Shown here: positions 7,023 to 34,630 of the stretch, piece after piece
How positions within the stretch are numbered: the first letter of the stretch is position 1
How the letters are laid out: the number at the start of each line of letters is the position of its first letter
Source: Chlorobiota bacterium
Lineage (GTDB): Bacteria > Bacteroidota > Ignavibacteria > OLB7
Direction: 5' to 3'
Assembly: GCA_963711465.1 (NCBI GenBank)
Contig: CAVQEG010000001.1
Span: 1,241,699-1,305,698, forward strand
Length of the DNA: 64,000 bases
Notes under the pieces: model-generated
Databases searched by the model: none
Seen by the model: the letters and a program-made list of their open reading frames with translations, nothing else
What the model was told of the DNA's origin: nothing
Made by a program: the position numbers and the translations under genes

Positions 7023-9131
7023 TCACCACAACGGTTGCTCCAGCGCCAGTCGCGCACCGAAGCGGCTGCCGTCGATGCTGATGTTGAGCCGGGCAGCCAG
7101 ACGCTCCCCGGCGTAGCGGATCGCCACCACCGGAGAGAGCCGCCAGTCGAACTGCGAGAGTTGTTCGATACGATCCCATCCGCCGGACGCTCCAAGGCCG
7201 ACGACGAGGCCGAACCTCCACACGACGGGAATTCTCGCCTCCGCCTCCATCTCCGCAATCACCGGCCGTTCGTACGGCCCGCGAACGCCGAGCTGCAGCG
7301 GATCGCGGCCGCCGAAGCCCGGAAGGAGCGCCGCCGGCAGACGGTCGGCCACGATCGCCTCGAGTCGTGCCGCCAGCGCCAGCGTCGTCGTCGGGTAGCA
7401 GAGTGTTGAGTAGTGGCGAACATCGAGTGCGAACCGTCCGAAGTGGCCCGTCGCCAAGCCAGTCTGCGGCGCAAGCTCCGTTTCGATCGCCAGCAGCGAT
7501 CCACGGTGCGGCTCGATCCTGCTGTCACGCGTGTCGACGCGGATCGTTCCGATGATCGATGCCACCGTTGCTGAACGGTCCGCCGCCGCCTGAACCTCCG
7601 ACGAGCCAGAGGCGGCCGAGGTCGGCCCGTCGTCGCTGACACCGCGATACCTGAGCGTGGCCGCGGCGACGACCCGTGAGGTCACGCCCGTGCTGACCGT
7701 CGCCGACACCACCGCCGTCTCTCGCACCGAACCGGGGTCGGCAGCCGTGAACTCGGCACCGGCGACCTCCCGACGGTATCCCGCGTGAACATCGAGGCCG
7801 ACATCGTAGGCGAGCCCGTGACGCAGCTCTCGATCGGGCCACGATACTGTGAACTGATGGTACTCCTCTCCCCCGGTCGATCGGTAAATGGTCAGATCGA
7901 ACGACTCCGCGTCGCCCGAGGCACCGACGAGTATCGATCGGAATCCATAGCCGTACCCGGCACTCGGTGCGAACGCCGTGAGCGGAATCGTTTCATAGAT
8001 CGGCCGCACTGGCGGTTCCACCGCATCGCATACCGTTGGCGCCCCGGCGCACGCCCTCCGCATGTCCAGATCCGCCAGCACACCGTTGTGATCCGACGGA
8101 AGTACGCCATCGACCGAATCGATGAGCGCCGCATAGGCATCGATCACGCTTGCGGAATCGAATCCATGGCCCAGTAGCAGGTAGTCACTCCGGTGTGTTC
8201 GACGCGACCACAGCGACACCAGCAGGTCGTACGAATCCAGCGTGTCGCCCGATGCGTCCACGGGTCGTCCGGACCACCTGGCGTATGCGTTGAAGACGGG
8301 ATCCCACGTGGCCGGGCAGTGCGCGCCGGCATCGATCATCCCCATCGAATCGAGAAGCGTTGCCAGTTCGGGCGAGTCCGCGGTCGCACCGAGCGAACCG
8401 CCGAGCACTAGTGGCGCACCGGCCGGGAGCCTTCTGATCCGTCCGACGAGTCGATCGATCTCGCTTCGACGGCACGCACGGGCACGATCCCAGCGCTCGA
8501 CGGCTCGGTCGAATTCGCTCCGCGAAACCGTTCCCCGTTCGCGGAAGCCGGCAAGCTCCTCAATGAGCGTCGTATCGCGTGGCGGCGTCTGATTCAGCAC
8601 CGTGTTGACCAGACAGATCTCGACCGAATCGACTCGGATGGTGGCGGCTATGGCGAGCGAAGCCGGCGAGCCCTGCACGTTGATCGCACCGCCGTGCAGG
8701 CCGAACGGGCCGGAGAGCTTCCAGACGTCGAGCGACTGGAGATGGAGTTCGGGTCGGGCGAGGATCGCCAGTCCGCGCGCCCGGTCGAAGGGAAATCCGA
8801 TCGGACCGAGGCGAACGCCGCCGTCGGTCATCTGGTGAATTCTGTCGAATCCCAGTTCGCCGGAGAGCCGCGCTGCGAGCCGGGGCGAGGCGTTCTGCAG
8901 GAATACGACATCGGGATCGACCGCACCGATCGACGCCACCATCGCCCGTTCGAGTTCCTCGCGCGTGGGCGCATCCTGCCAGCGACCGTCGACGATTCCC
9001 CCCGAATGGTCATAGCCATCCCACGCACTGATGCTCAGCACGCGAAGGCGGGCGTTCTGCGCGCTCGCGACGTCAATGCACGAGAGGAGCAGACACGCCA
9101 GGGCAAGGCATCGAAGCCGGGATTGTCGCAT
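7023..9131 (-). CDS. Secreted protein: N-terminal EEP (endonuclease/exonuclease/phosphatase)-like domain fused to a C-terminal outer-membrane beta-barrel of about 350 aa (autotransporter/Omp85-like translocator)
   Basis: Signal peptide MRQSRLRCLALACLLLSCIDVASAQ. EEP motifs are present (LRVLSIS…, DPDVVFLQNA, …SDHNGVLADL). The C-terminal third has an alternating beta-strand pattern, an LGVRGPYER motif, and terminates …RLALEQPLW with an aromatic last residue. Confidence 0.6.
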   Translation of the reverse strand: MRQSRLRCLALACLLLSCIDVASAQNARLRVLSISAWDGYDHSGGIVDGRWQDAPTREELERAMVASIGAVDPDVVFLQNASPRLAARLSGELGFDRIHQMTDGGVRLGPIGFPFDRARGLAILARPELHLQSLDVWKLSGPFGLHGGAINVQGSPASLAIAATIRVDSVEICLVNTVLNQTPPRDTTLIEELAGFRERGTVSRSEFDRAVERWDRARACRRSEIDRLVGRIRRLPAGAPLVLGGSLGATADSPELATLLDSMGMIDAGAHCPATWDPVFNAYARWSGRPVDASGDTLDSYDLLVSLWSRRTHRSDYLLLGHGFDSASVIDAYAALIDSVDGVLPSDHNGVLADLDMRRACAGAPTVCDAVEPPVRPIYETIPLTAFAPSAGYGYGFRSILVGASGDAESFDLTIYRSTGGEEYHQFTVSWPDRELRHGLAYDVGLDVHAGYRREVAGAEFTAADPGSVRETAVVSATVSTGVTSRVVAAATLRYRGVSDDGPTSAASGSSEVQAAADRSATVASIIGTIRVDTRDSRIEPHRGSLLAIETELAPQTGLATGHFGRFALDVRHYSTLCYPTTTLALAARLEAIVADRLPAALLPGFGGRDPLQLGVRGPYERPVIAEMEAEARIPVVWRFGLVVGLGASGGWDRIEQLSQFDWRLSPVVAIRYAGERLAARLNISIDGSRFGARLALEQPLW

Positions 9132-9197: not shown

Positions 9198-10640
9198 TCA
9201 GCGAATGGGCGCAATGGCAGGTATGGCGTCCGGCGACGTCAGCATGCGCGTGTCCTCCGGTTCGACGGTCCTGCTTCCTGATGTACCGAAGTGGCGCGTC
9301 GCGGCCACGACGACACAGCGACTGTAGAAGCGTCCCTCAGGCAGATCGTTGTCGCACAGATCGTACGGTCCGCGACCGCTGACGGTGGCGCCGGCGCGAC
9401 GCAGATTCAGTGCGACCAGCCGCGCGCGCCGATCGGTCAGATCGTGACTCCGCGCGTCGTCGCTGGTCAGATCGGTGTAGGCGGTGATCGAAATCGATGC
9501 GTCGTCGGGAAGCTCCGATGCGATCGAAGCGACGACGCGCCGATTGAGTTCATTGAAGTCGGCACGGTTGGGATCGAGCCAGACGATCGAATACGTATCG
9601 GTCTGCGCATCGCGCTCACCCGACTTCCGCTTCTTTGCGACCGTGAGCACATGCACCGGAAGCTGCTGGCACTGCGCAACCACTTCCTGTCCGCCGCCTC
9701 CGTGCACGACCAGTTCGGCGCGGAGCGTCGATGCTCGGCGCAGTGCATCCGACGACAGCGCCGTCAGATCCAGGTCGATGCTCTCCGGCGGCCGCCCGTC
9801 ACCGTCGATGTGGGCGAGCTCCTCATCGCGTTCGTTGCGAAGCACCAGCTGCCAGCCCTTCGCGTTGAACGAATCCGGCTGGTTTGCATAGATGCGCAGA
9901 CGCTGCGGCGCGATCTGGGTCGTGGTGTCCACGAGACGCACCGGCTCGAGGATGTCGAAGGAGCTCGCGTAGATCTCCACACGGCGGTTCTCCTCACGAC
10001 CAGCGGAGGTGCGGTTGTTCGAGGGAATCTCCGGGAGCAGCCGACTGTCGATGCTGATCCGAGCCGTGTCGATTCCGAACGACGCGCTCAGGTAGCGGCG
10101 CACCGACTCCGCCCTGCGTCGCGCCAGCCGGGCGGTTTCGCCGAACTCCGGTTCGTCGGAACTGGTGCCGACCAGCGTCAGCTGTGCGGCGGGCAACTGG
10201 CTCAGGCGGCGCCCGACGATGTTGAGCACGTCATGGTACACCGCGAGCTGTTCGCTCGACCGCGCACCGCGCGGCGCCACGCCGGGTTCGCCAGTGCGCC
10301 GATACCGCGCCGGAAGTTCGTCCGAACCACGATCGAAGAAGACGTAGTTGAGCAGTGGCTGCAGACGCGTCGAGGCGAATTCCTCGACGCGAACGCCGGT
10401 GATCGGTTCCTCCCGACCATTGCCCCGCACGCCGACAGCAACCAGTGGGGTTCCGAACTGTGTCGAGGGCGAAGATGCCACACGCAGTGCGCGCACCGGC
10501 GACATCGAAGCGGGAGCGTACGACGCGGTGGACGTGGCGCGGGAGGTGCTCGCAACGCCGTCGACGCGTTGTGCATGAACGACGCTCGCGCTCAGTAGTG
10601 AAGTAAGAGCTAGCAGTGGGTAGACGAATCGCGGTCTCAT
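9198..10640 (-). CDS. Tandem OmpA_C-like (peptidoglycan-binding) domain protein, secreted
   Basis: Signal peptide MRPRFVYPLLALTSLLSASVVHAQ, with the true ATG at 10640. Domain 1 is FFDRGSDELPARY…LVGTSSDEPE…ARRRAESVRRYL…ENRRVEIY. Domain 2 is ITAYTDLTSDD…RRARLVALNL…NDLPEGRFYSRCVVV. It is a paralogue of 12391-13500. Confidence 0.65.
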   Translation of the reverse strand: MRPRFVYPLLALTSLLSASVVHAQRVDGVASTSRATSTASYAPASMSPVRALRVASSPSTQFGTPLVAVGVRGNGREEPITGVRVEEFASTRLQPLLNYVFFDRGSDELPARYRRTGEPGVAPRGARSSEQLAVYHDVLNIVGRRLSQLPAAQLTLVGTSSDEPEFGETARLARRRAESVRRYLSASFGIDTARISIDSRLLPEIPSNNRTSAGREENRRVEIYASSFDILEPVRLVDTTTQIAPQRLRIYANQPDSFNAKGWQLVLRNERDEELAHIDGDGRPPESIDLDLTALSSDALRRASTLRAELVVHGGGGQEVVAQCQQLPVHVLTVAKKRKSGERDAQTDTYSIVWLDPNRADFNELNRRVVASIASELPDDASISITAYTDLTSDDARSHDLTDRRARLVALNLRRAGATVSGRGPYDLCDNDLPEGRFYSRCVVVAATRHFGTSGSRTVEPEDTRMLTSPDAIPAIAPIR

Positions 10641-11074: not shown

Positions 11075-12274
11075 ATGATCCGCCGCATTCTCCCTCTCGC
11101 GATGCTCCTGGTGGCATCGGCGGCCCCCGCCCTCTCACAGCCAGCGACGATCCGGGTGGCCACCTACAACGTTCTCAACTTCTCCGGCAATGAGGGCACC
11201 AACGCCTGGCACCGCATCGGCGACTTCCGCACGGTGCTGAGTCGGATCGATCCCGACATCCTGCTCGTCCAGGAGATGGTCAATCCGAGCGGAGCCCAGG
11301 TGTTTCTCGATTCGGTGATGAGCTTCCGGGCCAATTACGCCGCCTTCGGAACCGAGTACCTCGACGGCTGCGACGAAGCGCTGTTCATCGACACGGCACG
11401 CGTGGAATTTCTCCGGGCCGTCGTGCACGATCGTGCGTTGCGCGACATCATCGAGTACGTGCTGGTGATTCGGCAGAGCAATGACACGCTGCACGCGTTC
11501 GACGCGCATCTGAAAGCGGGCGACGCCTCGGCCGACGCCGAACAGCGCACCACCGAGGTCGATCCTCTGCACGACGAAATGGGTAGCATTCCGTTCGGAG
11601 ATTACTACCTCCTGGCCGGTGATCTCAACGTGTACACGAGTGATGAAGCGGCCTATCAGTCGCTTACCTCCGGCACGAACGGCGGTCGATTCACCGATCC
11701 GATCGATCGTCCCGGCGACTGGCACAATCACTCGGAGTTCGCCGACATTTTCACCCAGTCACCCCGCACCCGCCAGTTCGACGGCGGCATCAACGGCGGT
11801 ATGGATGACAGGTTCGACTTCATCCTCGTCTCTCCGGAACTGCGAGCGCGCTTTCTGAGCGGTTCCTATACCGCCTTCGGCAACGACGGACACCACATGA
11901 ACGATTCGATCAACCAGATGCCGAACGATGCGGTCGACCTCACCACTGCCAACGCGTTGCACTACGCCAGCGATCACATTCCGGTCTACGCCGACTTCGC
12001 GTTCGATTCGCGCTTCAGCGGCGTGGCGGCTGCGTCGTCAAACGATCGGATGCGCGTCGCGCCGCTTCCTGCATCGGGAGTCGTGCGGATCGGTGATGCG
12101 ACACTTCGTGCGATTTCGCTTATCGACCTCAACGGCCGGACCGTTCGGCGCGTGTCAGCATCGGGCGGTCGGATTCGTCTGGACGTCTCCGACCTGCCGA
12201 GCGGACTCTACGAGATCCGTGCGACCGACCGCGACGGGACCGTCCGCAGGCTCACTCTGCCGGTGGTGCACTGA
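11075..12274 (+). CDS. Secreted EEP-family hydrolase (nuclease/phosphatase) with T9SS type-A C-terminal sorting domain
   Basis: Signal peptide, then canonical EEP motifs (IRVATYNVLNF, DILLVQEM, LAGDLNVY, SDHIPVYADF). The last ~80 aa (…SGLYEIRATDRDGTVRRLTLPVVH) resemble a T9SS C-terminal domain. Confidence 0.7.
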   Translation: MIRRILPLAMLLVASAAPALSQPATIRVATYNVLNFSGNEGTNAWHRIGDFRTVLSRIDPDILLVQEMVNPSGAQVFLDSVMSFRANYAAFGTEYLDGCDEALFIDTARVEFLRAVVHDRALRDIIEYVLVIRQSNDTLHAFDAHLKAGDASADAEQRTTEVDPLHDEMGSIPFGDYYLLAGDLNVYTSDEAAYQSLTSGTNGGRFTDPIDRPGDWHNHSEFADIFTQSPRTRQFDGGINGGMDDRFDFILVSPELRARFLSGSYTAFGNDGHHMNDSINQMPNDAVDLTTANALHYASDHIPVYADFAFDSRFSGVAAASSNDRMRVAPLPASGVVRIGDATLRAISLIDLNGRTVRRVSASGGRIRLDVSDLPSGLYEIRATDRDGTVRRLTLPVVH

Positions 12275-12390
12275 GAACAGCGACCACGAGGACGCCGATC
12301 GAACACGCGTCGACAGCGACTTCAGAAGTGAACGGAACGGTGGTGGAACCGAGCCAGGGGCCGGGCGAATCCCGACGGCTGGTGAGACGG

Positions 12391-13500
12391 CTACCGTGCC
12401 TCCGGCGGGACGGACGGCTTCGGACCGCGGGTGATGAGAATCCGGACCGATCGTGAGAGAATTCGCCCCTCCGGAAGATCGTTCGGGAACAGGCGATCAT
12501 CCGAACCCGAGACGACGTCCACCCGGGCCTCCGACCCGAGGAGTCCCCGAAGAACGTCGGCGACACCTTCCGCGCGGCGCCGGGCGAGATCGAGATTCCC
12601 CTCGGCGCTGCCGATGCGATCGGTGAATCCCTGCACTTGCACGCGAGCGCCGGGCGGGACGCCGCTGGCGATGCGACGCAGTTCACTGCGGTGCACAGCG
12701 CTCGGATCGGCGACGTCGTAATCGAATGCCACCAGCAGCGTCGCGACACGATCGGCCTCGGCTCCACTGTGCAGGCGCACCGAGTGTTCGACCACGAGTG
12801 GAAGTCGCGCCAGCGACGAGTCGGCCACGCCGGTTGAATCCACCGCAATGAGTTCTGCCACGAGTGTATCGATCGAGGAGGTTCCCACCGTTGACGGAAT
12901 CGCCCACTCGAACGACGGAGCAGCGTTGGCGATCGAGTCACTGGAGAAGACGACGACCGGACGTTCGCCGTCATCGATCGACAGTGTCCATCGGCGTACG
13001 CCGGCTTCGGCGGTGATGATCGGCTCGAGTTGAATTCGAGGCGGATCGAACGAACGGTCGATGTGTTCGCCGTATACCGGCGAGAGAATCGCCGAGTCGG
13101 CTGCAAGCAGTTCGACCCGCCGGTTCTCCGCTCGTCCGTCGGCGGTGATCTCCCGAGCGGCGGAAATCCGACCGGTGCCCGTATCGACGGTGATCTGCTC
13201 GGTGGAGACGCCGAATCGCTCGCTGAGCACGCGGGCGACTGCCTCCGCCCGCTGCAGCGCCAGGCCTCGCGGCTCCTCACCCGAGGACATACCGCGCAGG
13301 ATGACGTGCGCCGCCGGCGTCGCGCGCAGTCGCGACGCAACCGTCGACAGCATCCCGTGGTTCAGCCGAAGCGGATCCGACGTGGTGTCCGATCCCGAGA
13401 TGACAGGTGCGAGAAAGCGTGCGGGCACGTCCGCCTGCGCCGAGTCGAAGAACACGACCGGAAGCAGAGGGGTCACGCTGCGTTCGATCGATTCGCTCAC
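12391..13500 (-). CDS. Tandem OmpA_C-domain protein (paralogue of 9198-10640), apparently translationally coupled to the upstream beta-barrel gene
   Basis: FFDSAQADVPARF…ILRGMSSGEE…LQRAEAVARVL…ENRRVELL forms the first domain. A second domain ends in NDLPEGRILSRSVRILI. The only start not buried in the upstream gene is GTG at 13500, inside a GTGA stop/start overlap, and there is no signal peptide of its own. Confidence 0.55.
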   Translation of the reverse strand: MSESIERSVTPLLPVVFFDSAQADVPARFLAPVISGSDTTSDPLRLNHGMLSTVASRLRATPAAHVILRGMSSGEEPRGLALQRAEAVARVLSERFGVSTEQITVDTGTGRISAAREITADGRAENRRVELLAADSAILSPVYGEHIDRSFDPPRIQLEPIITAEAGVRRWTLSIDDGERPVVVFSSDSIANAAPSFEWAIPSTVGTSSIDTLVAELIAVDSTGVADSSLARLPLVVEHSVRLHSGAEADRVATLLVAFDYDVADPSAVHRSELRRIASGVPPGARVQVQGFTDRIGSAEGNLDLARRRAEGVADVLRGLLGSEARVDVVSGSDDRLFPNDLPEGRILSRSVRILITRGPKPSVPPEAR

Positions 13501-14345
13501 GCGAATTCGTGCAAATTGTGCCGGGTTGCCGTCGGCGTCGATAGTCGCGCCCGCTGCGGGGGCACGTCGGCGGGCGTTGCCGGCTGTGTGATCCGGACCG
13601 GACGGTCGAACATCACGTCGAGACCAACGCCAACGCGCCGGGTACTCCATGCGTCACCGCGGTCGGTGGCCGCTTCGACATCCGACAGATCGAGTCGGGG
13701 ATAGAGGGCCCACCCCCGTCCGATGTCGATTCTGCGACGCACGACCAGACCCGCACCGATCGAAAGTCCGGGCGCAGGTACGCTCGAACGCGCCAGCTCG
13801 TGCTGTCGGGATCCGTCATCGAACGCCACGTCACCGGGACCGAGCACGGCGTCGGTGACGGTCGAGGAACCACCGATACGCAGAGACGCTATTGCCTCGA
13901 GCGCGAATTCCCATCGGGAGATTGGGCACCAGCCCGCTCCGAACGTAGCGTTGATCGCGTTGGTGAATGCAGTCAGGCGGTACTCCCGATCGACGTCGAC
14001 CAACGCATCGCTGACGGCATCGTAAATCAACTGACGACCGACCGGCGCGGCCGTAAATGACGATCGGTCAAAGGTCCATCCGAGCGAACCGCACAGCGCC
14101 AGTCGCGAAGTCAGTGCGTAGTGAACCCGAAAAGCCGCGAGTACCCCGAGCGACCACCCGCCGTCGAAAGCGCCACATGCGTCGGAACCCTCGAACACGG
14201 CGATGTGCCCCGCATCGAGCGATGCCCCCACGACAAGACCGCCCCCATAGGCGAGTGGCCCACTGGTCGTATCGATCTGGCCGAAGCTCGGTTTGATTGT
14301 AGCGGTTACGAGCACCGCGATGACGGCGAGGCGAAGTGAATACAT
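13497..14345 (-). CDS. Outer-membrane beta-barrel protein (OMP_b-brl/PorP-SprF-like size class)
   Basis: Signal peptide MYSLRLAVIAVLVTATIKPSFGQ, with the ATG at 14345 (the ORF-track start at 14378 adds 11 aa). Amphipathic beta-strand alternation runs throughout its ~280 aa. The stop overlaps the GTG of the OmpA-domain gene. Confidence 0.5.
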   Translation of the reverse strand: MYSLRLAVIAVLVTATIKPSFGQIDTTSGPLAYGGGLVVGASLDAGHIAVFEGSDACGAFDGGWSLGVLAAFRVHYALTSRLALCGSLGWTFDRSSFTAAPVGRQLIYDAVSDALVDVDREYRLTAFTNAINATFGAGWCPISRWEFALEAIASLRIGGSSTVTDAVLGPGDVAFDDGSRQHELARSSVPAPGLSIGAGLVVRRRIDIGRGWALYPRLDLSDVEAATDRGDAWSTRRVGVGLDVMFDRPVRITQPATPADVPPQRARLSTPTATRHNLHEFA

Positions 14346-14374
14346 GGATGAATTGTCGAATGGGTCGTCGAGTT

Positions 14375-17300
14375 TCACCGCACGATCAGCAGCGGAACAC
14401 TCTCACGTTCCTCCGCCGTGCGCAATTCGATTGTGTAGAGGCCCGAGGCCAGATCCGACACGTCCACGACCATCGTCTGCTCCTGGCTTATGCCCGTCGG
14501 CAGCTCGATCGCACGCGTCGTGCGGCCCAGCATGTCGCTGATCACCACCCGGGGCGCCGCATGCTCCGGTGCACGCCACGAGATCCGCACCGACCCCGTC
14601 GCCGGGTTCGGCTCCACACGCGTCAGCCGCGCCAGACGGCCGAAGCCGGTCCCGCGGCCTATGTCGCACCCGCTGAGCAGCACCAGGCCGTCGTGGCCTT
14701 CGGAGCCCCGAAGCGTCGACGCGCCGTCGCGGAGCTCGATGGTCGCAAACGCGATCACGTTCTGTGGCTGGCCCGTCACCAACCCCCGCATCTGCAGCAC
14801 GAACAGCGTGTCGCCGAGCAACGCCGTCCCCTCGGCCACGCCGTCGATCCGCACTCTCCCGGGGCCCAGTCGCCGCAGCGTCACCGGCCCCATCGGGCTG
14901 CTCGCCGACTCGACGTACAACGCCCGCGGGTCCATTGCCACCTCCGCCGTGAACGACCCGATGTCGTCGGTGCCCGCCAGTGCTGCATCCAGCCGCGCCA
15001 CCACATCGAACGCTTCGCCTGCCGCTGCCGCAACCGTGTCGAGCCGTACCTGCAGCGCCTCTGACTCAATGCCATCGCCCTGAAGATCGACCCACCCGTG
15101 CACGCCGTCATCGAGCACCGCCTCGAGCCGCGCCGTGTGACTGCCGACGGTCTGCGGCGTGAACGCCAGTCCGGTGTGGTAGTATTCGCCCGGACCGAGT
15201 GTGCGAGCTGCGCTCGAATCGACGCCGAACGTTGTCGCCTCAGCGCCGCCCAGCCTCAGCGTCACCACCGTCACCGCTCGCGTCGAGACATTGCGGACCC
15301 GAAGCGTATCGCTTGCACGTCGCGTCGTCCCCACCACCACGCGGCCGAAGTCGATCGCCGACGGCTGCAGCTCCAGCCCGACCGTATCACCAATACCCGT
15401 CAGCGTCACCGCCGGTTCCGATGGTGATGAATTCTGAATGTGAAGCACCGCCGTGCGCGCCCCCACCGCCACCGGCGCGAACCACGCGTCGAGCCACACC
15501 GTGTCGGCACCCTCCGGCGACAATGCGAACGGCGCGGTGCCCGGAACCACGAACGAACCCGTGTCCCCGTCCAGTGTGATCGCCAGAACCGTCGCCGGAG
15601 CGCTCCCTCGATTGGTCAGCCCGACGGCACGCGGTCCGACCGTGTCACCGAGATCGACGCGGCCGAAGTCCACCCGTCGCGTCAGCGCAACAACACCCGG
15701 CTCTACCGCCTGTCCGCCGAGTCCCACCGTCCAGCCCGCACCCGAGGCCGACTCCAGCCGAAGACGACTCTGCATCGCTCCCAGCTCCGTCGGCACCCAC
15801 CGAAGACACACCTCCACCGCCACCGAATCGACCAGCACAACCGGTGTTGTCAGCGGCTGGATGATCGACACCGACGGATCTTCGCTCGTGATCCGCGTGA
15901 TCTCGATCGGCCGGCACGACGGGTTCATCAGCTCCACGCACACCTCCGCCGTGTCGCCGACCGCCACCCGTGCGAACCACACCGAGTCCGGATCGCGAAC
16001 GACTTCCGCGACCGCCGAGGCGTTCCCGCGTAGCGCCACATGCCGATCCCCCTGATCGGTTTGCACCGTCAGTTCGGCCGACGACCATCCCGACGCCGCC
16101 GTCGGCGCGAAGCGCACGCTGTCGACCCGCGTCTCCCCCGGACCGATCAGCACGTTCGACGCCGCCGGCGACTGATAGTCCCCGACCGGCGAGATCGCGT
16201 ACCCCTCGAGTACTAGTGGCTCGCTGCCGTCGTTGTGCACCTCCACGGCGGCAGCCGGACGCTCCCCCGGAAGCACGCACGTGAACCCGATCGTATCCGG
16301 TGCGACACGCACATCATGCTCGACGCCACGACCGCGCAGCCCGACCTCCACCGTCGAGCCGTCGTCGCCACCGCCGCTCCAGTCCGCGCTGTCAGCCGCC
16401 ACACGCGTCGGACAGTACTCCACCACGATCCTCACCGTCGTTCCCGCCGCCAGCTCCTGCGGAAGCGCCGTCGGTGCAATCACCCGGAACGTCCCCGTCG
16501 GAACTCCCGCAAGCATCTGCACCGACGAGCGATTCAGTCCCACGCTGCTCGTCCCCACGTTGCGCACGCTGAACGAGTCCCGAGCACACGTCCCGACATC
16601 CACCGCCCCGAAGTCCAGCTCAACTGTCGACGCCGCAAGCACACCCCGAATGCCCCGGCCCCGAACCTGGACCACACGCGTCGGTGCATCGCTGCACCGA
16701 ACCTCGATCGCGTCGCTCACCGTCTCCTCCGACGTCGGACAGAACCGCACCCGCACCTGCACCGTGTCTCCCGGCTCCAGTCGCCGAGCGCCGCCAGACC
16801 ACGTCACCGTGACCGCGCTGCCGTCGACCGCCACGATCGTCTGCACCGTCACCGCCACGCTCCCGTCGTTGCCCACCACGATCAGCGTGTCGCGGCACGA
16901 ACCCACCGGCACATCACCGAAGTCCAGCCTCGCCGGCGCCCTCAGGTGCCGCTCGATCCCCACCCCGTGCAGCGCCACGAGCGTCGACCGCCCGTCGGCC
17001 GTGCCGTCGCTCCGAATCGACAGCTGCTCGGACGTCTCGCCGCTCAACTGCGGGCAGAAGCGAATCGTCACCGCAACCGAATCATCCGCCGCAACCTCGA
17101 ACGGCACCGATGGCGACGTCACCGCGAACGTCCCCGGCGTCAGCGACAGCCCCGTCACCCTCAGCGCGAATCGCCCGGGATTGCGGACCACGAACCGGCC
17201 CTCGCGACAGCTGTCGACCTCCACTTCGCCGAACTCCACCGTTGTCGGCTCCACCGCGATCCCCGGAGCACCGGCACACCCCTGCAGCACCACCGCACGG

Positions 17301-20137
17301 GGTCCGATGGCACTCTGCACCTCAACGCGCGACTCGATGCACCCGCTGTCCAGCGGACAGTACCGAAGCGCAAAGTCGATCGAATCTCCCGGCGCCAGCA
17401 CCACCGAGTCCGTCGGTGCGGTCACCTCGAAGTACCACGGCGCACGTCCACCGACGACCGTCAGCGGACTGCCCAGCAGCCAGCCGCCGCCCCGGTTGGC
17501 GACGCTCCCCGTCGTGTCCACGCAGGTCCCCACGCGTACCAGCCCGAAGTCGATCGTATCCGACGGATGGAAGACAGGATCCGGTGGCAGCGCGCAGCCG
17601 ATGAGAATGATCGTATCACGGCCGCCATTGGACTCGAAGACCAGCGGAATCGAGAAGCAGCCCGTGTCGCGCGGGCAGAATCGCACGCGACCGGACACGA
17701 ATCGCTCGAGCGTGCCCAGTGCAACCGGTTGCAGAGGTGCGGTGGTGACGAATGCCGCGGATCGTGCGCCCACCGCCCGTGGAGCATCGACCCGCAGTGA
17801 GTCCCCTCCCAGGTTCTCGATCACGAACGTCGAGTCCGCGCTACACTCCCCGAGCGCGATCGTGCCGAACTCCAGCGTATCCGGCGTCACCCGCAACCGC
17901 GGACCCACGCCGTGCGCAAGCAGCACCACCGTATCGCGACCATCACCCGAGCCGTTCGACGATACGATCCATCGTGCCGAGGCCTGCCCGGAGTCCGTCG
18001 CGCAGTAGCGCACCGACACCGTATCCGACTCCAGCAACCCCAGCCGCAGCGTCGACACCGATCCGTCGACGGTGAACAACCGAGACTGCGGACCCGAGAC
18101 TGCCGAACTTGCGATAATGAGTGAGTCCCCCCCGACGTTCCCCACCACCTCCGTCGTATCGACACAGCGGCCCGTGTACACGTCGCCGAAGTCGATCGTA
18201 TCGGGACGCATCCGCAGACGCGGCCCAATGCCGTTGCCGCGCACCAAGACGTAGTCCTCCCCGCCGTTCGACCCGTTCGACGTGTAGGTGATCCGTCCGG
18301 TGTGCTCGCCAGGGTGCTGCGGGCAGAACCGGATCGTCACCTGCGTCGAGTCGAGCAATCCCAGTCGGATTGACGCCGTCGCCGCCGACGGCGTGAACGC
18401 CAGCGAGTCAGTGCCGCTCACTCGCGCTGCGCCCAGCACCAGCGAATCACCGCCTCGGTTGTGGACCCAGACGCTCGTGTCCCGGCACGCCCCCGTCAGC
18501 ACATCGCCGAAGTCGACGTACTCCGGCGTCACCTCGATCCTCGGTCCGACACCGCAGCCACGGAGCACCACCGTGTCGATGCCACCATCGGCGACCACCG
18601 CCAGCTTCGCCGACACACAGCCCGGTCCCGTTGGACAGAAGCCGACGTCAACGAGCGTCGAGTCGTCGATGAGCACCGTCGTGCCGTCGTAGGACGCGCT
18701 GAGGTGAAATGCCCCCGCATCGGCACCCACGGCATGCACACGCTCGACGTGCATCGTATCCGTTGCATACAGCTTCCGCAGCGCCCGCAGCCACACGCTC
18801 GAGTCGGCGCACGCGCCGACCAGCACCGAACCGAAGTCGATCGTGTCGAGGGAGAATGATGGTGCAGGCGGCGGTGCGATCGTGTTGTAGGCAAGCGCGA
18901 TCTCGTACCACGGCCCTGGCAGCGACGGATGGCTGCCCCGCCACTGCGTCGTCGTGTAGGTGATCGCCACCACCGAGTCGTGGCACGCGATGAAGCGTCC
19001 GCCAGGTGCAGCGATGTCCAGTGAATCGTTCTGCGAGACATCCTCCCCCTGCGACCACCGGCCTCCGTGCCGCACGAAGTACCAGATGTCCCAGTCGGTG
19101 CTGTCGTCGGTCCGCTCGACCGCGATGTGCGGATCGCCGTTGCGGTCGACCGCGATCGACGTCCGGTTGTAGAACGCCGTGTCGCCGAGCTGCACCGCTG
19201 GTTGCCACTGGCCTCCTTCGTTCGAGGTGTATCGAACGATCGATCGCCGTGGCGAGGTCGCCGTCACGTCGGTGAACGACACGTGCCACACGCCCCGTGC
19301 ATCGCACGCGACCGACGGACAGAACGACGGCCACAGCGGTGTGGCGCTGATGCCCGGCGCGCTCGGACTCGTTGTGAACAACGTTGTAGGGCTCGACATC
19401 CCCGCCGTATCGCCGGTGATCACCATCACCTCGCGGCTCAGTGATGTCCACCGCGCGTAGACGATCGCCACGCGACCCGACGCGTGGATCGAGATGCACG
19501 GGTCGAGGTTCCGAGCGCCTGCTCCGTCGTTCGTCAGCGCCAATGGCGTCGACCACGTTCCGGTGGTGCTCCGTACGGTCAACCAGAGGTTGCCCCCCTC
19601 GGAATACACAACCCACAGTCGCCCCGCGCGATCCACAGCCGCCGTCGGCAGCATTTGATCTGCGCTGCATCCGGAGCCGAATACCCGTGACACCGTGCTG
19701 CTTCCCCCAGCAGGAATGCGGATGTAGGTCAGACACCGGCTTGAATACTGGATCGGGCCGGACGCGCTGAGCACATGGGTCGTGCCGGACGAATCGACGG
19801 CAAATCCGTACTCCACCCTCGCAAACCCCGAATCGATCGTCAACTCCGTGGCGACACCCGAGACGTTCGACAGAGCCAATTCTACCATTGGGCGGCCCAA
19901 TGCCCGATCAACAATTCCGCTTGTGCGGTACCCATCACCACCACATCGCGTCACGATATGGAGGTGTCCGCTGTCGTCGATGCACATCGATGGAAATACC
20001 ATCACCCCACGCCAGTAATAGTTGGACAGGTCCGTGAGTCGCCGCACCGTCCAATCACCCGTCTGTGCAACTGTCGACGCTGATCCGAGAACGACGGCAC
20101 ATGCCACCAGAAACATCAACAATATCCGTTGCCTCAT
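14375..20137 (-). CDS. Giant (1920 aa) T9SS-secreted surface protein: N-terminal BNR/sialidase-like propeller, ~15 Ig-like (ASH / choice-of-anchor-D type) repeats, T9SS CTD
   Basis: Signal peptide at the true N-terminus. BNR-like SxxGGxW motifs fall in the first 400 aa. A ~95-aa unit (…DFG.V..G.C.D…V.N.GG..L…) repeats about 15 times. The C-terminus …ASGLYTIELRTAEERESVPLLIVR is a type-A sorting domain. Confidence 0.75.
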   Translation of the reverse strand: MRQRILLMFLVACAVVLGSASTVAQTGDWTVRRLTDLSNYYWRGVMVFPSMCIDDSGHLHIVTRCGGDGYRTSGIVDRALGRPMVELALSNVSGVATELTIDSGFARVEYGFAVDSSGTTHVLSASGPIQYSSRCLTYIRIPAGGSSTVSRVFGSGCSADQMLPTAAVDRAGRLWVVYSEGGNLWLTVRSTTGTWSTPLALTNDGAGARNLDPCISIHASGRVAIVYARWTSLSREVMVITGDTAGMSSPTTLFTTSPSAPGISATPLWPSFCPSVACDARGVWHVSFTDVTATSPRRSIVRYTSNEGGQWQPAVQLGDTAFYNRTSIAVDRNGDPHIAVERTDDSTDWDIWYFVRHGGRWSQGEDVSQNDSLDIAAPGGRFIACHDSVVAITYTTTQWRGSHPSLPGPWYEIALAYNTIAPPPAPSFSLDTIDFGSVLVGACADSSVWLRALRKLYATDTMHVERVHAVGADAGAFHLSASYDGTTVLIDDSTLVDVGFCPTGPGCVSAKLAVVADGGIDTVVLRGCGVGPRIEVTPEYVDFGDVLTGACRDTSVWVHNRGGDSLVLGAARVSGTDSLAFTPSAATASIRLGLLDSTQVTIRFCPQHPGEHTGRITYTSNGSNGGEDYVLVRGNGIGPRLRMRPDTIDFGDVYTGRCVDTTEVVGNVGGDSLIIASSAVSGPQSRLFTVDGSVSTLRLGLLESDTVSVRYCATDSGQASARWIVSSNGSGDGRDTVVLLAHGVGPRLRVTPDTLEFGTIALGECSADSTFVIENLGGDSLRVDAPRAVGARSAAFVTTAPLQPVALGTLERFVSGRVRFCPRDTGCFSIPLVFESNGGRDTIILIGCALPPDPVFHPSDTIDFGLVRVGTCVDTTGSVANRGGGWLLGSPLTVVGGRAPWYFEVTAPTDSVVLAPGDSIDFALRYCPLDSGCIESRVEVQSAIGPRAVVLQGCAGAPGIAVEPTTVEFGEVEVDSCREGRFVVRNPGRFALRVTGLSLTPGTFAVTSPSVPFEVAADDSVAVTIRFCPQLSGETSEQLSIRSDGTADGRSTLVALHGVGIERHLRAPARLDFGDVPVGSCRDTLIVVGNDGSVAVTVQTIVAVDGSAVTVTWSGGARRLEPGDTVQVRVRFCPTSEETVSDAIEVRCSDAPTRVVQVRGRGIRGVLAASTVELDFGAVDVGTCARDSFSVRNVGTSSVGLNRSSVQMLAGVPTGTFRVIAPTALPQELAAGTTVRIVVEYCPTRVAADSADWSGGGDDGSTVEVGLRGRGVEHDVRVAPDTIGFTCVLPGERPAAAVEVHNDGSEPLVLEGYAISPVGDYQSPAASNVLIGPGETRVDSVRFAPTAASGWSSAELTVQTDQGDRHVALRGNASAVAEVVRDPDSVWFARVAVGDTAEVCVELMNPSCRPIEITRITSEDPSVSIIQPLTTPVVLVDSVAVEVCLRWVPTELGAMQSRLRLESASGAGWTVGLGGQAVEPGVVALTRRVDFGRVDLGDTVGPRAVGLTNRGSAPATVLAITLDGDTGSFVVPGTAPFALSPEGADTVWLDAWFAPVAVGARTAVLHIQNSSPSEPAVTLTGIGDTVGLELQPSAIDFGRVVVGTTRRASDTLRVRNVSTRAVTVVTLRLGGAEATTFGVDSSAARTLGPGEYYHTGLAFTPQTVGSHTARLEAVLDDGVHGWVDLQGDGIESEALQVRLDTVAAAAGEAFDVVARLDAALAGTDDIGSFTAEVAMDPRALYVESASSPMGPVTLRRLGPGRVRIDGVAEGTALLGDTLFVLQMRGLVTGQPQNVIAFATIELRDGASTLRGSEGHDGLVLLSGCDIGRGTGFGRLARLTRVEPNPATGSVRISWRAPEHAAPRVVISDMLGRTTRAIELPTGISQEQTMVVDVSDLASGLYTIELRTAEERESVPLLIVR

Positions 20138-20338
20138 AATACCAGTGGCTCCGTGTAGACCATTTCAGAACAATACTCCACCCATTTATATAACGGTCCA
20201 GCGTCCCGAACTGTGACCACCGGCGGGTCTATTGTCACACTTTCGACCGCACGGCCGTTATTAAGGTAGAGCGACCATCACAATCCACCGGTCGCCTGAC
20301 GCCACCGCGCGTCGACACCTCAACCAACGGACATCACC

Positions 20339-22072
20339 ATGAACACTCAGTTCACCGCCCGTCGACTCGGGCGACTCATTCGTCACCTCCTGGCCTCAAC
20401 CGTCGTGGCCCTGACCGCTTCCGCGGCATTGCACGCGCAATGGAGCACGAAAATCACCGAGCTCATCTCCTATCAGGGCGTCATCGACAGCGCCGGCGTG
20501 AAGATCACCAACTCCGATCCCGATAACCTGACGTTCAACATCTACCCGGCTGTATCGAGCGTAATACCAAGATGGTCCGAGACCGACACCGTCACCATCA
20601 CCAACGGGCTCTTCTCGGTGGTTCTCGGACAGAACTCCCCGCTCTCGATCCTTCCGTTCGATACCACTTACTACCTCGAGGTCACCTACAACCCCCCGGG
20701 CACTCCTATCACCTTCCCCCGTGTCCAGCTCACTGCTTCGGCCTTCTCCTTCCGTGCTGAGCACGCCGACACCGTCGACGGGGCGGTCTTCTGGGAACTC
20801 AATGCGAGTGATGAGGCGCACCTGCGAACCCCTTCAACAGGGTCGCGAGGCGCAGGCGCCAACCGCGTCCTCGTCGGAACCACCGACGGTACGAGCTTCG
20901 CTCCGGAATCCGGAGCCCTCGGCGTGCTGGCAGTCGATGACGACGATGCGGCGATCGTTCTCAAGGACAACCACTCCGGCTCCGGAAATGCCTATGGCGT
21001 ATTGGCAACGGACGTCAGCACCACCGGCGGCGACGCTGCCGGCGTTGCCACCACGCTCGTCGCGGCCCAGGGAACCGGTATTGCTACTGGTTTCTACCTC
21101 GACAGCGCAAACGTCAAGGCAGGCAGTACCGTCAGTGGATTTCGAGCGCGACAAGTCAATGCCGAGTCGCCCGGTGGCGATGCCCACGGCGTCCTCATCG
21201 ATCAGGTGACGGCTCCCGGAAACAGTGGTAATGCGTATGCGTTTCGGTCCGTTGCCGTCCAAGCCGAAGGAAGTGCGAACGGGGTCGACATCGGGCTCAT
21301 TACGGCTCCGCATGGGAAAGCGACGGGATTCAAAGCTGCAGCGGTCTCGGCGATTCAGGACCGCGCGATCGGACTCGATCTGGAGAATGTGTCGTCGACC
21401 GATAACCTGGTGGTCTCTTACGGCGCGAAGGTGATCAACATGTCGCCGAACGGCCAACAATACGGTGTGTACGGAGAGGTTCAAAGCACCAATACGACCA
21501 GCAGTGGTGCCGGAGTCGCGGCGGTCGGCGCGGGGAGTTTGTCACCTGGCTCCCCCGCGGCTGCCGCGCTCGAGGTTCAGAACGGAGCCATCCGCGTAAC
21601 CGGAACCGATCAGCCCGCCGGTCGCGTCCTCGTTCCGTGGCCGCCTGCCGGTCAGTGGTGTACGACGATCACCGTTCCCAACAACCTCGTGAACCTCGGT
21701 TCATCGATCATCGCGACCGTAGAGCTCGCGCCAGGCATCGGCACGCCCGTCCCGTCCGACCCCTGGGTCGTGACCATCAACAACGTCGTCGCCGGCGCAT
21801 TCACCGCGGATCTTCACGCGCTGTTGAGCTGCTACGGTAATCGCGGCAATCCTCCGGGTCCGGGGTATTCGCTCTGGCTCAATTACGTCGTCGCCTCAAC
21901 AGCGTCGCGGCGGAGCTCGTTGGATCGGCGAACTCCGCCGCGTTCGCTTTCCAGATCCGGTTCTGCCGTTCGCGGAAGTGCCCGTTGTTACACTCGGGGG
22001 CGTTCAGCCGTTATTGGTATGACTCCTCTCCTCACGCACGTGGACCCCCATGAAGTATCGAGCGATTGGTGA
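20339..22072 (+). CDS. Secreted low-complexity repetitive protein (Gly/Ala/Thr/Val-rich), function unknown; the 3' end may be frameshifted
   Basis: Good signal peptide. A G/A/S/T-rich repetitive core is present. The last ~60 aa are Arg/Ser-rich and look out of frame. No T9SS CTD could be found in any frame. Confidence 0.5.
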   Translation: MNTQFTARRLGRLIRHLLASTVVALTASAALHAQWSTKITELISYQGVIDSAGVKITNSDPDNLTFNIYPAVSSVIPRWSETDTVTITNGLFSVVLGQNSPLSILPFDTTYYLEVTYNPPGTPITFPRVQLTASAFSFRAEHADTVDGAVFWELNASDEAHLRTPSTGSRGAGANRVLVGTTDGTSFAPESGALGVLAVDDDDAAIVLKDNHSGSGNAYGVLATDVSTTGGDAAGVATTLVAAQGTGIATGFYLDSANVKAGSTVSGFRARQVNAESPGGDAHGVLIDQVTAPGNSGNAYAFRSVAVQAEGSANGVDIGLITAPHGKATGFKAAAVSAIQDRAIGLDLENVSSTDNLVVSYGAKVINMSPNGQQYGVYGEVQSTNTTSSGAGVAAVGAGSLSPGSPAAAALEVQNGAIRVTGTDQPAGRVLVPWPPAGQWCTTITVPNNLVNLGSSIIATVELAPGIGTPVPSDPWVVTINNVVAGAFTADLHALLSCYGNRGNPPGPGYSLWLNYVVASTASRRSSLDRRTPPRSLSRSGSAVRGSARCYTRGRSAVIGMTPLLTHVDPHEVSSDW

Positions 22073-22685
22073 ACGCATTGTCGGGCGACGCCGGAGCAGG
22101 TCCAGCGCGCTGGACCACGATCGCGACTTGTTTCGACGGTTGCTGCAGGGTGATGCCGACGCGTTCGCCGGGTTTTTTGATCTGCATCAGCCCAGGATCT
22201 TCTCCTACTGCGTCAAGATGCTCGAGTCGAGCGACGACGCCGCGGACATTACGCAGGAGGTGTGGGAACGCCTGCTGCGGATGCGCTCCGGTGCGGTGAG
22301 TGATGCCAACCCCGCGGGTCTTCTGATTACTATGGCACGCAACCGCTGTATCGACAGACTCAATGCGCGACGGTCATCGACCTCCCTCGACGCAATTCCC
22401 GAATCCGATCACCCGGTCACCAATCAACCGCAGCAGTCCCAACTCGAAGAGCTCGTGGTGCTCTCGCTGGGAAAGCTGCCCTTCCCCCAGCGCGAAGTGC
22501 TCGTGCTGCACCTGTACAGCGGGTACTCCTTTGTCGAAATTTCCGAGTTGCTCGGTGAGTCCCATCAGGCCGTTCGAATGCGCGCCTCGCGTGCTCGCCG
22601 CCACCTCGTCGCTCTCCTGACCGTCATGCTCGGTATCGAAGAGGATTACCTCGATTCCGACGATTCTGATTCCGGACGCCCATGA
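22050..22685 (+). CDS. ECF (sigma-70 family, group 4) RNA polymerase sigma factor
   Basis: Region-2 motif DITQEVWERLLR and a region-4 HTH (LVLHLYSGYSFVEISELLGESHQAVRMRASRARRHL). It overlaps the upstream gene by 23 nt, so the start is uncertain. Confidence 0.75.
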   Translation: MKYRAIGERIVGRRRSRSSALDHDRDLFRRLLQGDADAFAGFFDLHQPRIFSYCVKMLESSDDAADITQEVWERLLRMRSGAVSDANPAGLLITMARNRCIDRLNARRSSTSLDAIPESDHPVTNQPQQSQLEELVVLSLGKLPFPQREVLVLHLYSGYSFVEISELLGESHQAVRMRASRARRHLVALLTVMLGIEEDYLDSDDSDSGRP

Positions 22686-23446
22686 ACAGCGCACAACAGC
22701 AGCGGACCGTCGAACGCTATCTCAACGGCGAACTGACGCCGTCGGAGGAACAGGATTTCTTCATTGAAGTCGCCGTCAATGATGAACTCCGTCAACGGCT
22801 GAAGGCGAACCGCATCGTCGACCAGGCGCTGGCCAGAGACAGCAAAGGGGTGAACCGTGATCACTCGCGGATGCGATCGCAGTTGCTGGCGCTGCACGGC
22901 GCCGCACTTTCCGGAGGCGCATTCGCCGCGCGGCATCGCGCCCTGCACCGAGTCGTGCGGGAATTGTTGACGTGGAAAGCCGCGGTGGTACTCGGTCTCG
23001 GAGGCGGCGGTGCCCTTCTCCTGCATGCGATCGACCCGGCGCCGCCAGCGTCGGTTCCTGTGTCGGCGCCGTCAAACGGCGGAGTCGTAACCGCGCCGCA
23101 GCACCGGGACCCACAGCCCACATCCGGCACCGACCACGCGGTCGACGGCTTCGATGAACCGATCACAACGCCCGACGCCGCGTCGACTGATGTTCCCGTC
23201 ACCGCAGGGCCGGCCGTGACGGCCACGGCCTCGCGCCGACACGATGCGCTGGAGGTCGGTCATCCCCGATCGGACTCTTCGATGGCATCGTCGACTGCGC
23301 CGGCCGATTCCGTTGTGATGGATCGGCAGGATTCTTCGCGCATCGGTGCAACCACCCTCCCATCCGACCATCGAACCTCCTACGAGACGGACGATTCAAT
23401 TCATATCAAGGGAATCGTTCTCCCGCCTCGCATCGAACGCCGGTGA
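22682..23446 (+). CDS. Anti-sigma factor (single-pass membrane)
   Basis: ATGA overlap with the sigma-gene stop. N-terminus RYLNGELTPSEEQDFF is a typical anti-sigma motif. There is one TM helix (AAVVLGLGGGGALLL) and a Pro/Thr-rich periplasmic tail. Confidence 0.55.
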   Translation: MNSAQQQRTVERYLNGELTPSEEQDFFIEVAVNDELRQRLKANRIVDQALARDSKGVNRDHSRMRSQLLALHGAALSGGAFAARHRALHRVVRELLTWKAAVVLGLGGGGALLLHAIDPAPPASVPVSAPSNGGVVTAPQHRDPQPTSGTDHAVDGFDEPITTPDAASTDVPVTAGPAVTATASRRHDALEVGHPRSDSSMASSTAPADSVVMDRQDSSRIGATTLPSDHRTSYETDDSIHIKGIVLPPRIERR

Positions 23447-34296: not shown

Positions 34297-34630
34297 GAAT
34301 GTCGGAGTAGTGGCGCCACAGGCGTCACGATGGTTTGTCGTTGTCGTGCGGCCCGATCTCCCATCCGGCGATCCAGCCCGTGGTATGGCGTCTCGAAATT
34401 CTCCGCGTCGACCTCCTCGACTCGTGCGTGCAACTCGTGCGTGAAAACGGTCACCAATGAACATCGCCCGACGCGGTTCGTACCTCTCAGGACGGGGACC
34501 TGGGGACTGACCCGAAGCGGGCGACCCGCTATATTACCATAGTTGCGTCAACGCGACAACTGCCCGTCAGACGCCGTCGCACCCCTCTTCCGAAGGCGAT
34601 TTTTTCACGCTCCCCAAGGCCATCATCCCG

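Follow-up and report, generated by a model that had tools for sequence, protein, structure and literature searches.

In a 64,000-nucleotide stretch of DNA from a Chlorobiota bacterium (contig CAVQEG010000001.1 of assembly GCA_963711465.1, positions 1,241,699 to 1,305,698; 'the window' below means this whole stretch) we analysed a pair of genes on the minus strand, at 12391-20137. The upstream gene encodes a giant predicted type IX secretion system (T9SS) cargo with a type A C-terminal sorting domain (CTD), and the downstream gene encodes a predicted outer-membrane β-barrel joined to OmpA-type domains. We give about an even chance to the reading that the two form an operon which recurs as a cassette in Kapaibacterium-like Bacteroidota, combining a type A T9SS cargo with a cognate, peptidoglycan-tethered partner of the OmpA/OprF type. 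Each component belongs to a familiar class: the cargo with its type A CTD, the tether of the OmpA/OprF type, and a pair of extracytoplasmic function (ECF) sigma and anti-sigma factors. What is new is their conserved combination and the partner that it implies for a type A cargo. Our search of the literature found no description of this cassette, or of a T9SS-linked barrel-OmpA family in Kapaibacteria.

Evidence for this reading comes from the company that the two genes keep in related genomes. A scan of species-representative genomes from an eight-sequence alignment returned 30 loci, on which we mapped a profile hidden Markov model (HMM) of the last ~230 cargo residues together with an HMM of the barrel-OmpA protein. 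Nearly all loci lie in metagenome-assembled genomes (MAGs) labelled Candidatus Kapaibacterium, Kapaibacteriota or, generically, Bacteroidota, Chlorobiota or Ignavibacteria; Kapaibacterium itself is placed in the Bacteroidota. In 14 of the 21 cases that were informative, from about ten MAGs, the barrel-OmpA gene has the full cargo C-terminal module directly 5' of it and in the same orientation (the window and L006, L007, L008, L009, L011, L012, L013, L016, L019 twice, L020, L021 and L023). There are up to three loci per genome, and several paralogous cassettes can occur in one genome. Locus L006 reproduces the whole arrangement of the window, including a 577-aa secreted protein. The distances between cargo modules correlate with those between the adjacent barrel-OmpA proteins (Spearman 0.46, Mantel p ~2e-4; the Pearson coefficient of 0.89 is partly driven by one close pair), which shows that cargo and barrel-OmpA are inherited and duplicated as a unit, though contact between them is not thereby proved. 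An earlier note on this DNA had suggested that the cargo and the barrel and OmpA genes behind it form a dedicated unit, and had named synteny in related genomes as a check. The synteny is indeed conserved, and the pairing, the paralogous cassettes and the co-divergence support the suggestion. On one contig (L019, 1-14200) two complete cassettes stand in tandem, each with a divergent ECF sigma gene, then the cargo, then barrel-OmpA; the two copies are mutually closest (cargo modules 46% and barrel-OmpA proteins 55% identical), a sign that the cassette was duplicated as a whole.

The cargo gene (14375..20137, 1920 aa; like all features below it lies on the minus strand unless stated) is an open reading frame (ORF) whose translation was scanned against Pfam and NCBIfam. 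Its product consists, in order, of a signal peptide (MRQRILLMFLVACAVVLGSASTVAQ, 20066..20137, read directly from the sequence), an N-terminal domain of ~400 aa with weak BNR-like matches only, 11 choice-of-anchor-D immunoglobulin-like repeats (NF012200, 357.8 bits), a cohesin-like module and the CTD (aa 1843-1914; 14396..14611). The CTD scores 30.4-34.3 bits against PF18962 (cut-off 27) and, against TIGR04183 (cut-off 23), 22.7 bits in the whole protein and 28.1 bits as a C-terminal fragment. The predicted sequence thus has both the Sec signal peptide and the C-terminal TIGR04183/PF18962 domain of a type A cargo. A PorX orthologue (the T9SS response regulator with a PglZ domain) is encoded at 32716-34464 (NF052313, 707.9 bits, cut-off 300), which indicates that the organism has a T9SS.

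The conserved part of the cargo is its C-terminal module (aa 1690-1920; 14378..15070), made up of the cohesin-like domain, a 'GLVxLSGCDIG' motif and the CTD, and common to the cargos encoded 5' of barrel-OmpA genes. Across the 14 paired cases Por_Secre_tail (PF18962) is found in 13 and Cohesin (PF00963), weakly, in five, and the cysteine at position 1824 (codon 14666..14668) is invariant in all 14. In the window Cys1824 is the sole cysteine of the 231-aa module, ~19 residues ahead of the CTD. Upstream of the module the cargos diverge, and a full-length homologue occurs only in L006, at 36% identity. A word-indexed protein search with the module gave no matches, and sequence searches of the PDB with the N-terminal domain, the module and the module profile were uninformative. 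The string 'LLSGC' resembles a lipobox, a reading that we set aside because the string lies 1820 residues from the N-terminus with no hydrophobic signal ahead of it. Over 20.8 kb the window differs from a Logan contig of ERR11571143 at a single site, position 18127 inside the giant gene, where the window has G7 and an intact ORF and the Logan contig has G6, which splits the gene into 666 + 1184 aa; homopolymer miscalls or heterogeneity thus exist in this data set.

Behind the cargo gene, the earlier note read a barrel gene and a separate OmpA gene. All three ORFs are present on the one strand as it described, but the latter two, judged by their homology across reading frames, are one gene, split in this assembly by a one-nucleotide frameshift in its linker. 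The barrel ORF (13497..14345, ATG at 14345, 282 aa), which starts 29 nt downstream of the cargo gene, encodes a signal peptide and an eight-stranded outer-membrane barrel; its homology-supported part is 13527-14330, and the final ~20 codons are an out-of-frame tail. The OmpA half (12391..13548 by homology) belongs to an ORF of 12391-13500/13650 and is publicly annotated from a GTG at 13500 as a 369-aa product that has no signal peptide and whose first residues already form the first OmpA-like strand. An exhaustive HMMER search with the barrel gave 74 relatives, about 60 of which are proteins of 600-740 aa that have the barrel at residues 1-280 and carry barrel and periplasmic domain on one exported polypeptide, typically as signal peptide, barrel, Pro-rich linker and two OmpA_C-like domains. 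(A word-indexed protein search with the barrel returned only itself.) When the family HMM is run on three-frame translations of the window, the barrel frame covers model positions 6-273 (13527-14330) and the OmpA frame positions 278-669 (12427-13548), so that the second match begins 16 codons 5' of the annotated GTG. The sequence encoded in the OmpA frame ahead of that start, ATIDADGNPAQFARIRV, aligns with the homologues, which have an N-terminal barrel, a Pro-rich linker and then a segment of the type '...AKGVDAxG...I.VEE...PLLP.VFFDS'; its counterpart in the window, ATIDADGNPAQFARIRVSESIERSVTPLLPVVFFDS, is likewise encoded in the OmpA frame 5' of the annotated start. The -1 change of frame falls within ~5 model positions, at a C5 run in the Pro-rich linker (13558..13562; G5 on the plus strand) which is the most likely site of a one-nucleotide loss. 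Adding a single C to this run gives ...PADVPPAAGATIDADG... and restores one ORF of ~650 aa. A plot of G+C content at third codon positions over 12200-14500 separated the frames too poorly to place the frameshift. The public two-gene annotation is probably wrong, and the OmpA half is probably no free-standing protein.

What this means for the window copy depends on the run itself. As assembled, the barrel would be made alone and the OmpA half would be untranslated or left in the cytoplasm; because that half lacks a signal peptide, the anchor would not work in this genome, except if the C5 tract is variable or owed to a sequencing error. The independent Logan assembly has the identical sequence at the C5 site. 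Most barrel-OmpA relatives are intact, and two more are disrupted: the gene in L004 (7540-7720) has a frameshift in the Pro-rich linker, within a run of C12, and that in L005 has an in-frame TAG in OmpA-like domain 1 (9992-9994). Repeated inactivation, phase variation or sequencing errors in poly-C linkers could each account for these disruptions. Programmed frameshifting was tried as the principal explanation and rejected, given a -1 shift at C5 in the window, a +1 shift in C12 in L004, a stop codon in L005 and most relatives in frame.

The AlphaFold2 (AF2) model of the barrel ORF (mean predicted local distance difference test (pLDDT) score 89.3) is an outer-membrane β-barrel with eight strands, of the OmpA/NspA/OmpW type, and thus has the N-terminal fold expected of an OmpA/OprF-type tether. 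The window ORF has no Pfam or NCBIfam match at E<=0.1, and a lenient scan of 56 family members returned OMP_b-brl_2 (PF13568) in nine (best E 1.2e-10), an autotransporter β-domain in four, OMP_b-brl in three and PorP_SprF in one, the last below threshold (E=0.01). By sequence the barrel is accordingly nearest to PF13568 and not to OmpA_membrane (PF01389). Of 37 strongly conserved columns, 27 lie in long hairpins predicted to be extracellular, in the motifs 'PVYxGSxxCGxF', 'LVxLDRExRL' and 'QTDNxLGPGxxxFxDG', with a lone cysteine among them: Cys57 (codon 14175..14177), at the tip of the first hairpin, is conserved in 96% of the 56 members. A sub-branch (L004 6810-7673, L005 9014-9994 and protein P0006) has vicinal cysteines, NCCP or SCCP, in place of the single one, and the giants upstream in this sub-branch are of ~2050 aa with DUF7948, SBBP, SprB-repeat and PKD domains and without the cohesin-like/CTD module.

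The OmpA ORF scores 56.8 bits against PF00691 (cut-off 27.2), in two stretches, and its AF2 model (pLDDT 87.8) shows an OmpA-like domain, a β-sandwich and a second OmpA-like domain. In the first (13096..13473) the TD..G...N motif is missing, while the 'RAE' arginine and 'NRRVE' remain; the sandwich follows at 12802..13077; the second (12430..12753) has the canonical peptidoglycan-binding motif 'GFTDRIG...N..L...RA', with its predicted binding Asp and Arg, and a family motif NDLPEGR. In Foldseek this half is matched best by the domains with which OprF, A. baumannii OmpA (AbOmpA), Pal and MotB bind peptidoglycan. Taken together, the predicted structures give the barrel-OmpA protein an OmpA/OprF architecture with a tandem periplasmic part. 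The window holds another paralogue of the periplasmic part (9198-10640, HMM positions 269-666; 480 aa counted from MRPRF...), with a signal peptide, no barrel, no lipobox and a degenerate second OmpA-like motif (AYTDLTSD). It adjoins a gene on the plus strand (11075-12274) for an endonuclease/exonuclease/phosphatase (EEP) protein with a type A CTD, and lies upstream of an unusual 702-aa fusion of an EEP domain (PF03372) to a weakly matched Omp85-type barrel (PF01103) at 7023-9131.

How might such a pair work? Sec is expected to export a cargo of this kind, the T9SS to translocate it and PorV to collect it, with processing at its CTD, and a barrel-OmpA protein is expected to be inserted by the β-barrel assembly machinery (BAM) and to bind peptidoglycan. 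The giant protein would accordingly reach the surface by Sec and then, through its type A CTD, the T9SS, while the barrel-OmpA protein would sit in the outer membrane with its C-terminal domain or domains on the peptidoglycan. Every cargo stands beside a diverged barrel-OmpA of its own, so that this protein is most likely the cognate partner, one that would hold the neighbouring cargo at a wall-tethered site. The cohesin-like module ahead of the CTD would dock on the conserved extracellular hairpins of the barrel, and this docking would give a surface protein of very large size a mechanical link to the cell wall. A single unrelated polypeptide would then fill the role that PorP and PorE have together for type B cargos. 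Purely as a hypothesis, the candidate interface is a disulfide or a non-covalent dock between the hairpins or Cys57 on the one side and the cargo module or Cys1824 on the other. A more elaborate version we regard as distinctly improbable: a third way of T9SS cargo fixation in Kapaibacterium-like Bacteroidota, in which a subset of type A cargos carries the cohesin-like pre-CTD module and docks by it on a cognate, peptidoglycan-tethered, eight-stranded OmpA-type barrel, perhaps through a Cys1824-Cys57 disulfide, each cassette has its own ECF sigma/anti-sigma pair, and linker homopolymers (C5 here, C12 in L004) switch the anchor on and off.

Several observations count against a cognate partnership. 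Published work indicates that PorV and PorU suffice for type A cargos and that these are anchored to anionic lipopolysaccharide (A-LPS) (PMC9143113, PMC12618676), so that the mechanism as known does not call for a dedicated partner. Seven of the 21 core-family genes have no cargo module upstream (L010, L032, two in L015, L017, L018 and L024), and conversely there are cargos with the module and no barrel-OmpA gene after them (L007, L008 and the first cargo of L009). Joint duplication by itself would also make the two diverge in step, and on average the extracellular part of the barrel is not significantly more conserved than the membrane part (p=0.21). Finally, the barrel-OmpA gene is disrupted in two assemblies of this genome.

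One rival explanation is that the barrel-OmpA protein is a general, envelope-stabilising protein of the OmpA/OprF kind, co-regulated with large surface proteins, perhaps by the ECF sigma factor, and making no specific contact with any cargo, its cysteine serving homo-oligomerisation. The architecture fits, as do the third of family genes without an adjacent cargo, the disulfide-linked oligomers described for the OmpA proteins of P. gingivalis and T. forsythia (stated in PMC12635249), and the ECF sigma and anti-sigma neighbours, which would suit an envelope-stress regulon. However, if its role were general and structural, one would not expect several diverged versions in one genome with a cargo next to each, or divergence in step with the cargo module, and most of the strongly conserved positions lie in surface-exposed hairpins. 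We consider this explanation rather unlikely. Far less probable is that the split is genuine and functional, with barrel and OmpA as separate, translationally coupled genes. The public calls of 282 aa + 369 aa do overlap by four nucleotides (GTGA), and both assemblies agree at the site, but without a signal peptide the 369-aa product could not reach the periplasm, homology in the same frame runs on 5' of its start, nearly all relatives are fused, and the shift falls at a homopolymer in the very data set that shows the G6/G7 discrepancy at 18127.

The remaining alternative, which we find scarcely credible, is the one suggested by the earlier note's analogy with SprB and SprF: that the barrel is a PorP/SprF-family shuttle and the OmpA part a peptidoglycan anchor like PorE (PG1058), as in the type B cargo operons of F. 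johnsoniae. The order of cargo, barrel and OmpA_C does mirror operons of the Fjoh_3952-3951-3950 type (PMC12618676, PMC9143113), and there is the single sub-threshold PorP_SprF match among 56 family members. But the comparison of 13497-14345 with the PorP/SprF model (PF11751) that the note had called for gave no match at E<=0.1 in Pfam or NCBIfam, none of 21 members matched at E<=0.01, and neither the window barrel nor 55 of the 56 relatives has a PorP_SprF or TIGR match. PorP/SprF barrels have 14 strands (PMC9143113) where the AF2 model has eight, and their short periplasmic C-terminal tail carries a cysteine motif that bonds GldK/PorK (PMC12635249), whereas the family barrel runs on into the Pro-rich linker and OmpA domains, with no cysteine there. 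The sorting domains disagree as well: PorV is the general shuttle for every type A CTD, and it is type B cargos that depend on cognate PorP/SprF-like shuttles, five F. johnsoniae operons adding a PorE homologue (PMC12618676, PMC9143113). None of 22 neighbouring cargo C-termini matches the type B model (TIGR04131), while the window cargo and 10 of the 21 others scanned match the type A model TIGR04183. Nor does the likeness to PorE hold, for PorE is an outer-membrane lipoprotein with TPR, β-propeller, CRD and OmpA_C domains (PMC9143113); here only OmpA_C is present, there is no lipobox, TPR or propeller, and in the relatives a barrel occupies the N-terminus of the same protein. This alternative is thus already contradicted on four defining features. 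The earlier note had treated a barrel unlike PorP/SprF together with unconserved synteny as fatal to its proposal, and only the former is what we find.

The surroundings of the pair are partly conserved with it. Divergent from the cargo gene lies the gene for the secreted 577-aa protein (20339..22072, plus strand), which has no known family and is conserved only in the closest syntenic locus, L006. It is followed, also on the plus strand, by an ECF sigma factor gene (22050..22685) and by one for a putative membrane anti-sigma factor (22682..23446) with one transmembrane segment, of which the N-terminal ~85 aa are conserved. In 10 related loci the cassette has homologues of the sigma factor and of the anti-sigma N-terminus at its side, mostly transcribed divergently from the cargo gene. 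A scan of 12000-20500 for sigma-70 promoters and terminators gave nothing above chance, and no shared ECF-type -35/-10 motif was found 5' of the cargo genes of eight loci. Just past the sigma/anti-sigma pair, at 23998-26787, is a further T9SS cargo gene with a type A CTD (929 aa, BNR/sortilin-like repeats), and the window from 7 to 27 kb is altogether rich in genes for T9SS cargos and outer-membrane proteins. In some related loci a conserved protein of ~300 aa, of no known family and with a cysteine-containing C-terminal motif LTPEQD..VR.C...DC, is encoded directly 5' of the barrel-OmpA gene (L017 8855-9745, L018 8819-9781, L015 449-1324 and L020 8700-9632); in L020 it sits between cargo and barrel-OmpA gene.

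Current models of the T9SS send all type A cargos through PorV and fix them to A-LPS, and reserve dedicated barrels (PorP/SprF), sometimes with a PorE-like wall anchor, for type B cargos. The locus described here pairs type A cargos with an unrelated, OmpA-type barrel-plus-peptidoglycan anchor, and the pairing is conserved and multi-copy. Should the paired proteins be physical partners, dedicated anchoring of cargos would have arisen at least two times, and adhesins of very large size could be tethered to the wall in an uncultured, deep-branching lineage of Bacteroidota. Two lone conserved cysteines and a defined C-terminal module make the docking hypothesis testable.

Of the systems already described, PorG resembles the barrel in being a small, eight-stranded T9SS-associated outer-membrane protein with a conserved cysteine, disulfide-bonded in its case to PorK/GldK (PMC12635249). 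However, PorG is a stand-alone barrel and a single-copy core component, with its cysteines in a short periplasmic C-terminal tail and no OmpA domains, whereas here the cysteine is at the tip of the first hairpin, the C-terminus leads into predicted peptidoglycan-binding domains, and the proteins form a cargo-linked family of paralogues. The OmpA/OprF family shares the plan of an N-terminal eight-stranded barrel and a C-terminal OmpA_C domain. It differs from the present family in that there is no OmpA_membrane match here, that the barrel has very long strands, conserved motifs on its extracellular side and a single conserved cysteine, that two OmpA_C-like domains enclose a β-sandwich, and that the family is restricted to its lineage, present in several copies and linked with the genes for T9SS cargos. 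Also comparable are the disulfide-linked OmpA-like proteins of P. gingivalis and T. forsythia, likened here by their description in PMC12635249 only: they too are Bacteroidota proteins with barrel, OmpA_C and a functionally important intermolecular cysteine, but they are abundant general outer-membrane proteins whose genes are not known to neighbour those of particular T9SS cargos.

The closest parallel in organisation is offered by the type B operons (F. johnsoniae Fjoh_3952-3951-3950; P. gingivalis PG1035-PorP-PorE; PMC9143113, PMC12618676), which have the same order of large T9SS cargo, outer-membrane barrel and OmpA_C module and likewise occur as several paralogous cassettes per genome. 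The parts themselves are different: an eight-stranded, OMP_b-brl_2-like barrel stands here in place of the 14 strands of PorP/SprF, a single polypeptide comprises barrel and OmpA_C, the CTD is of type A, the TPR, propeller and CRD domains and the lipoprotein signal of PorE are absent, and an ECF sigma/anti-sigma pair belongs to the neighbourhood. What the two arrangements would presumably share is their outcome: a static surface protein tethered through the outer membrane to the cell wall.

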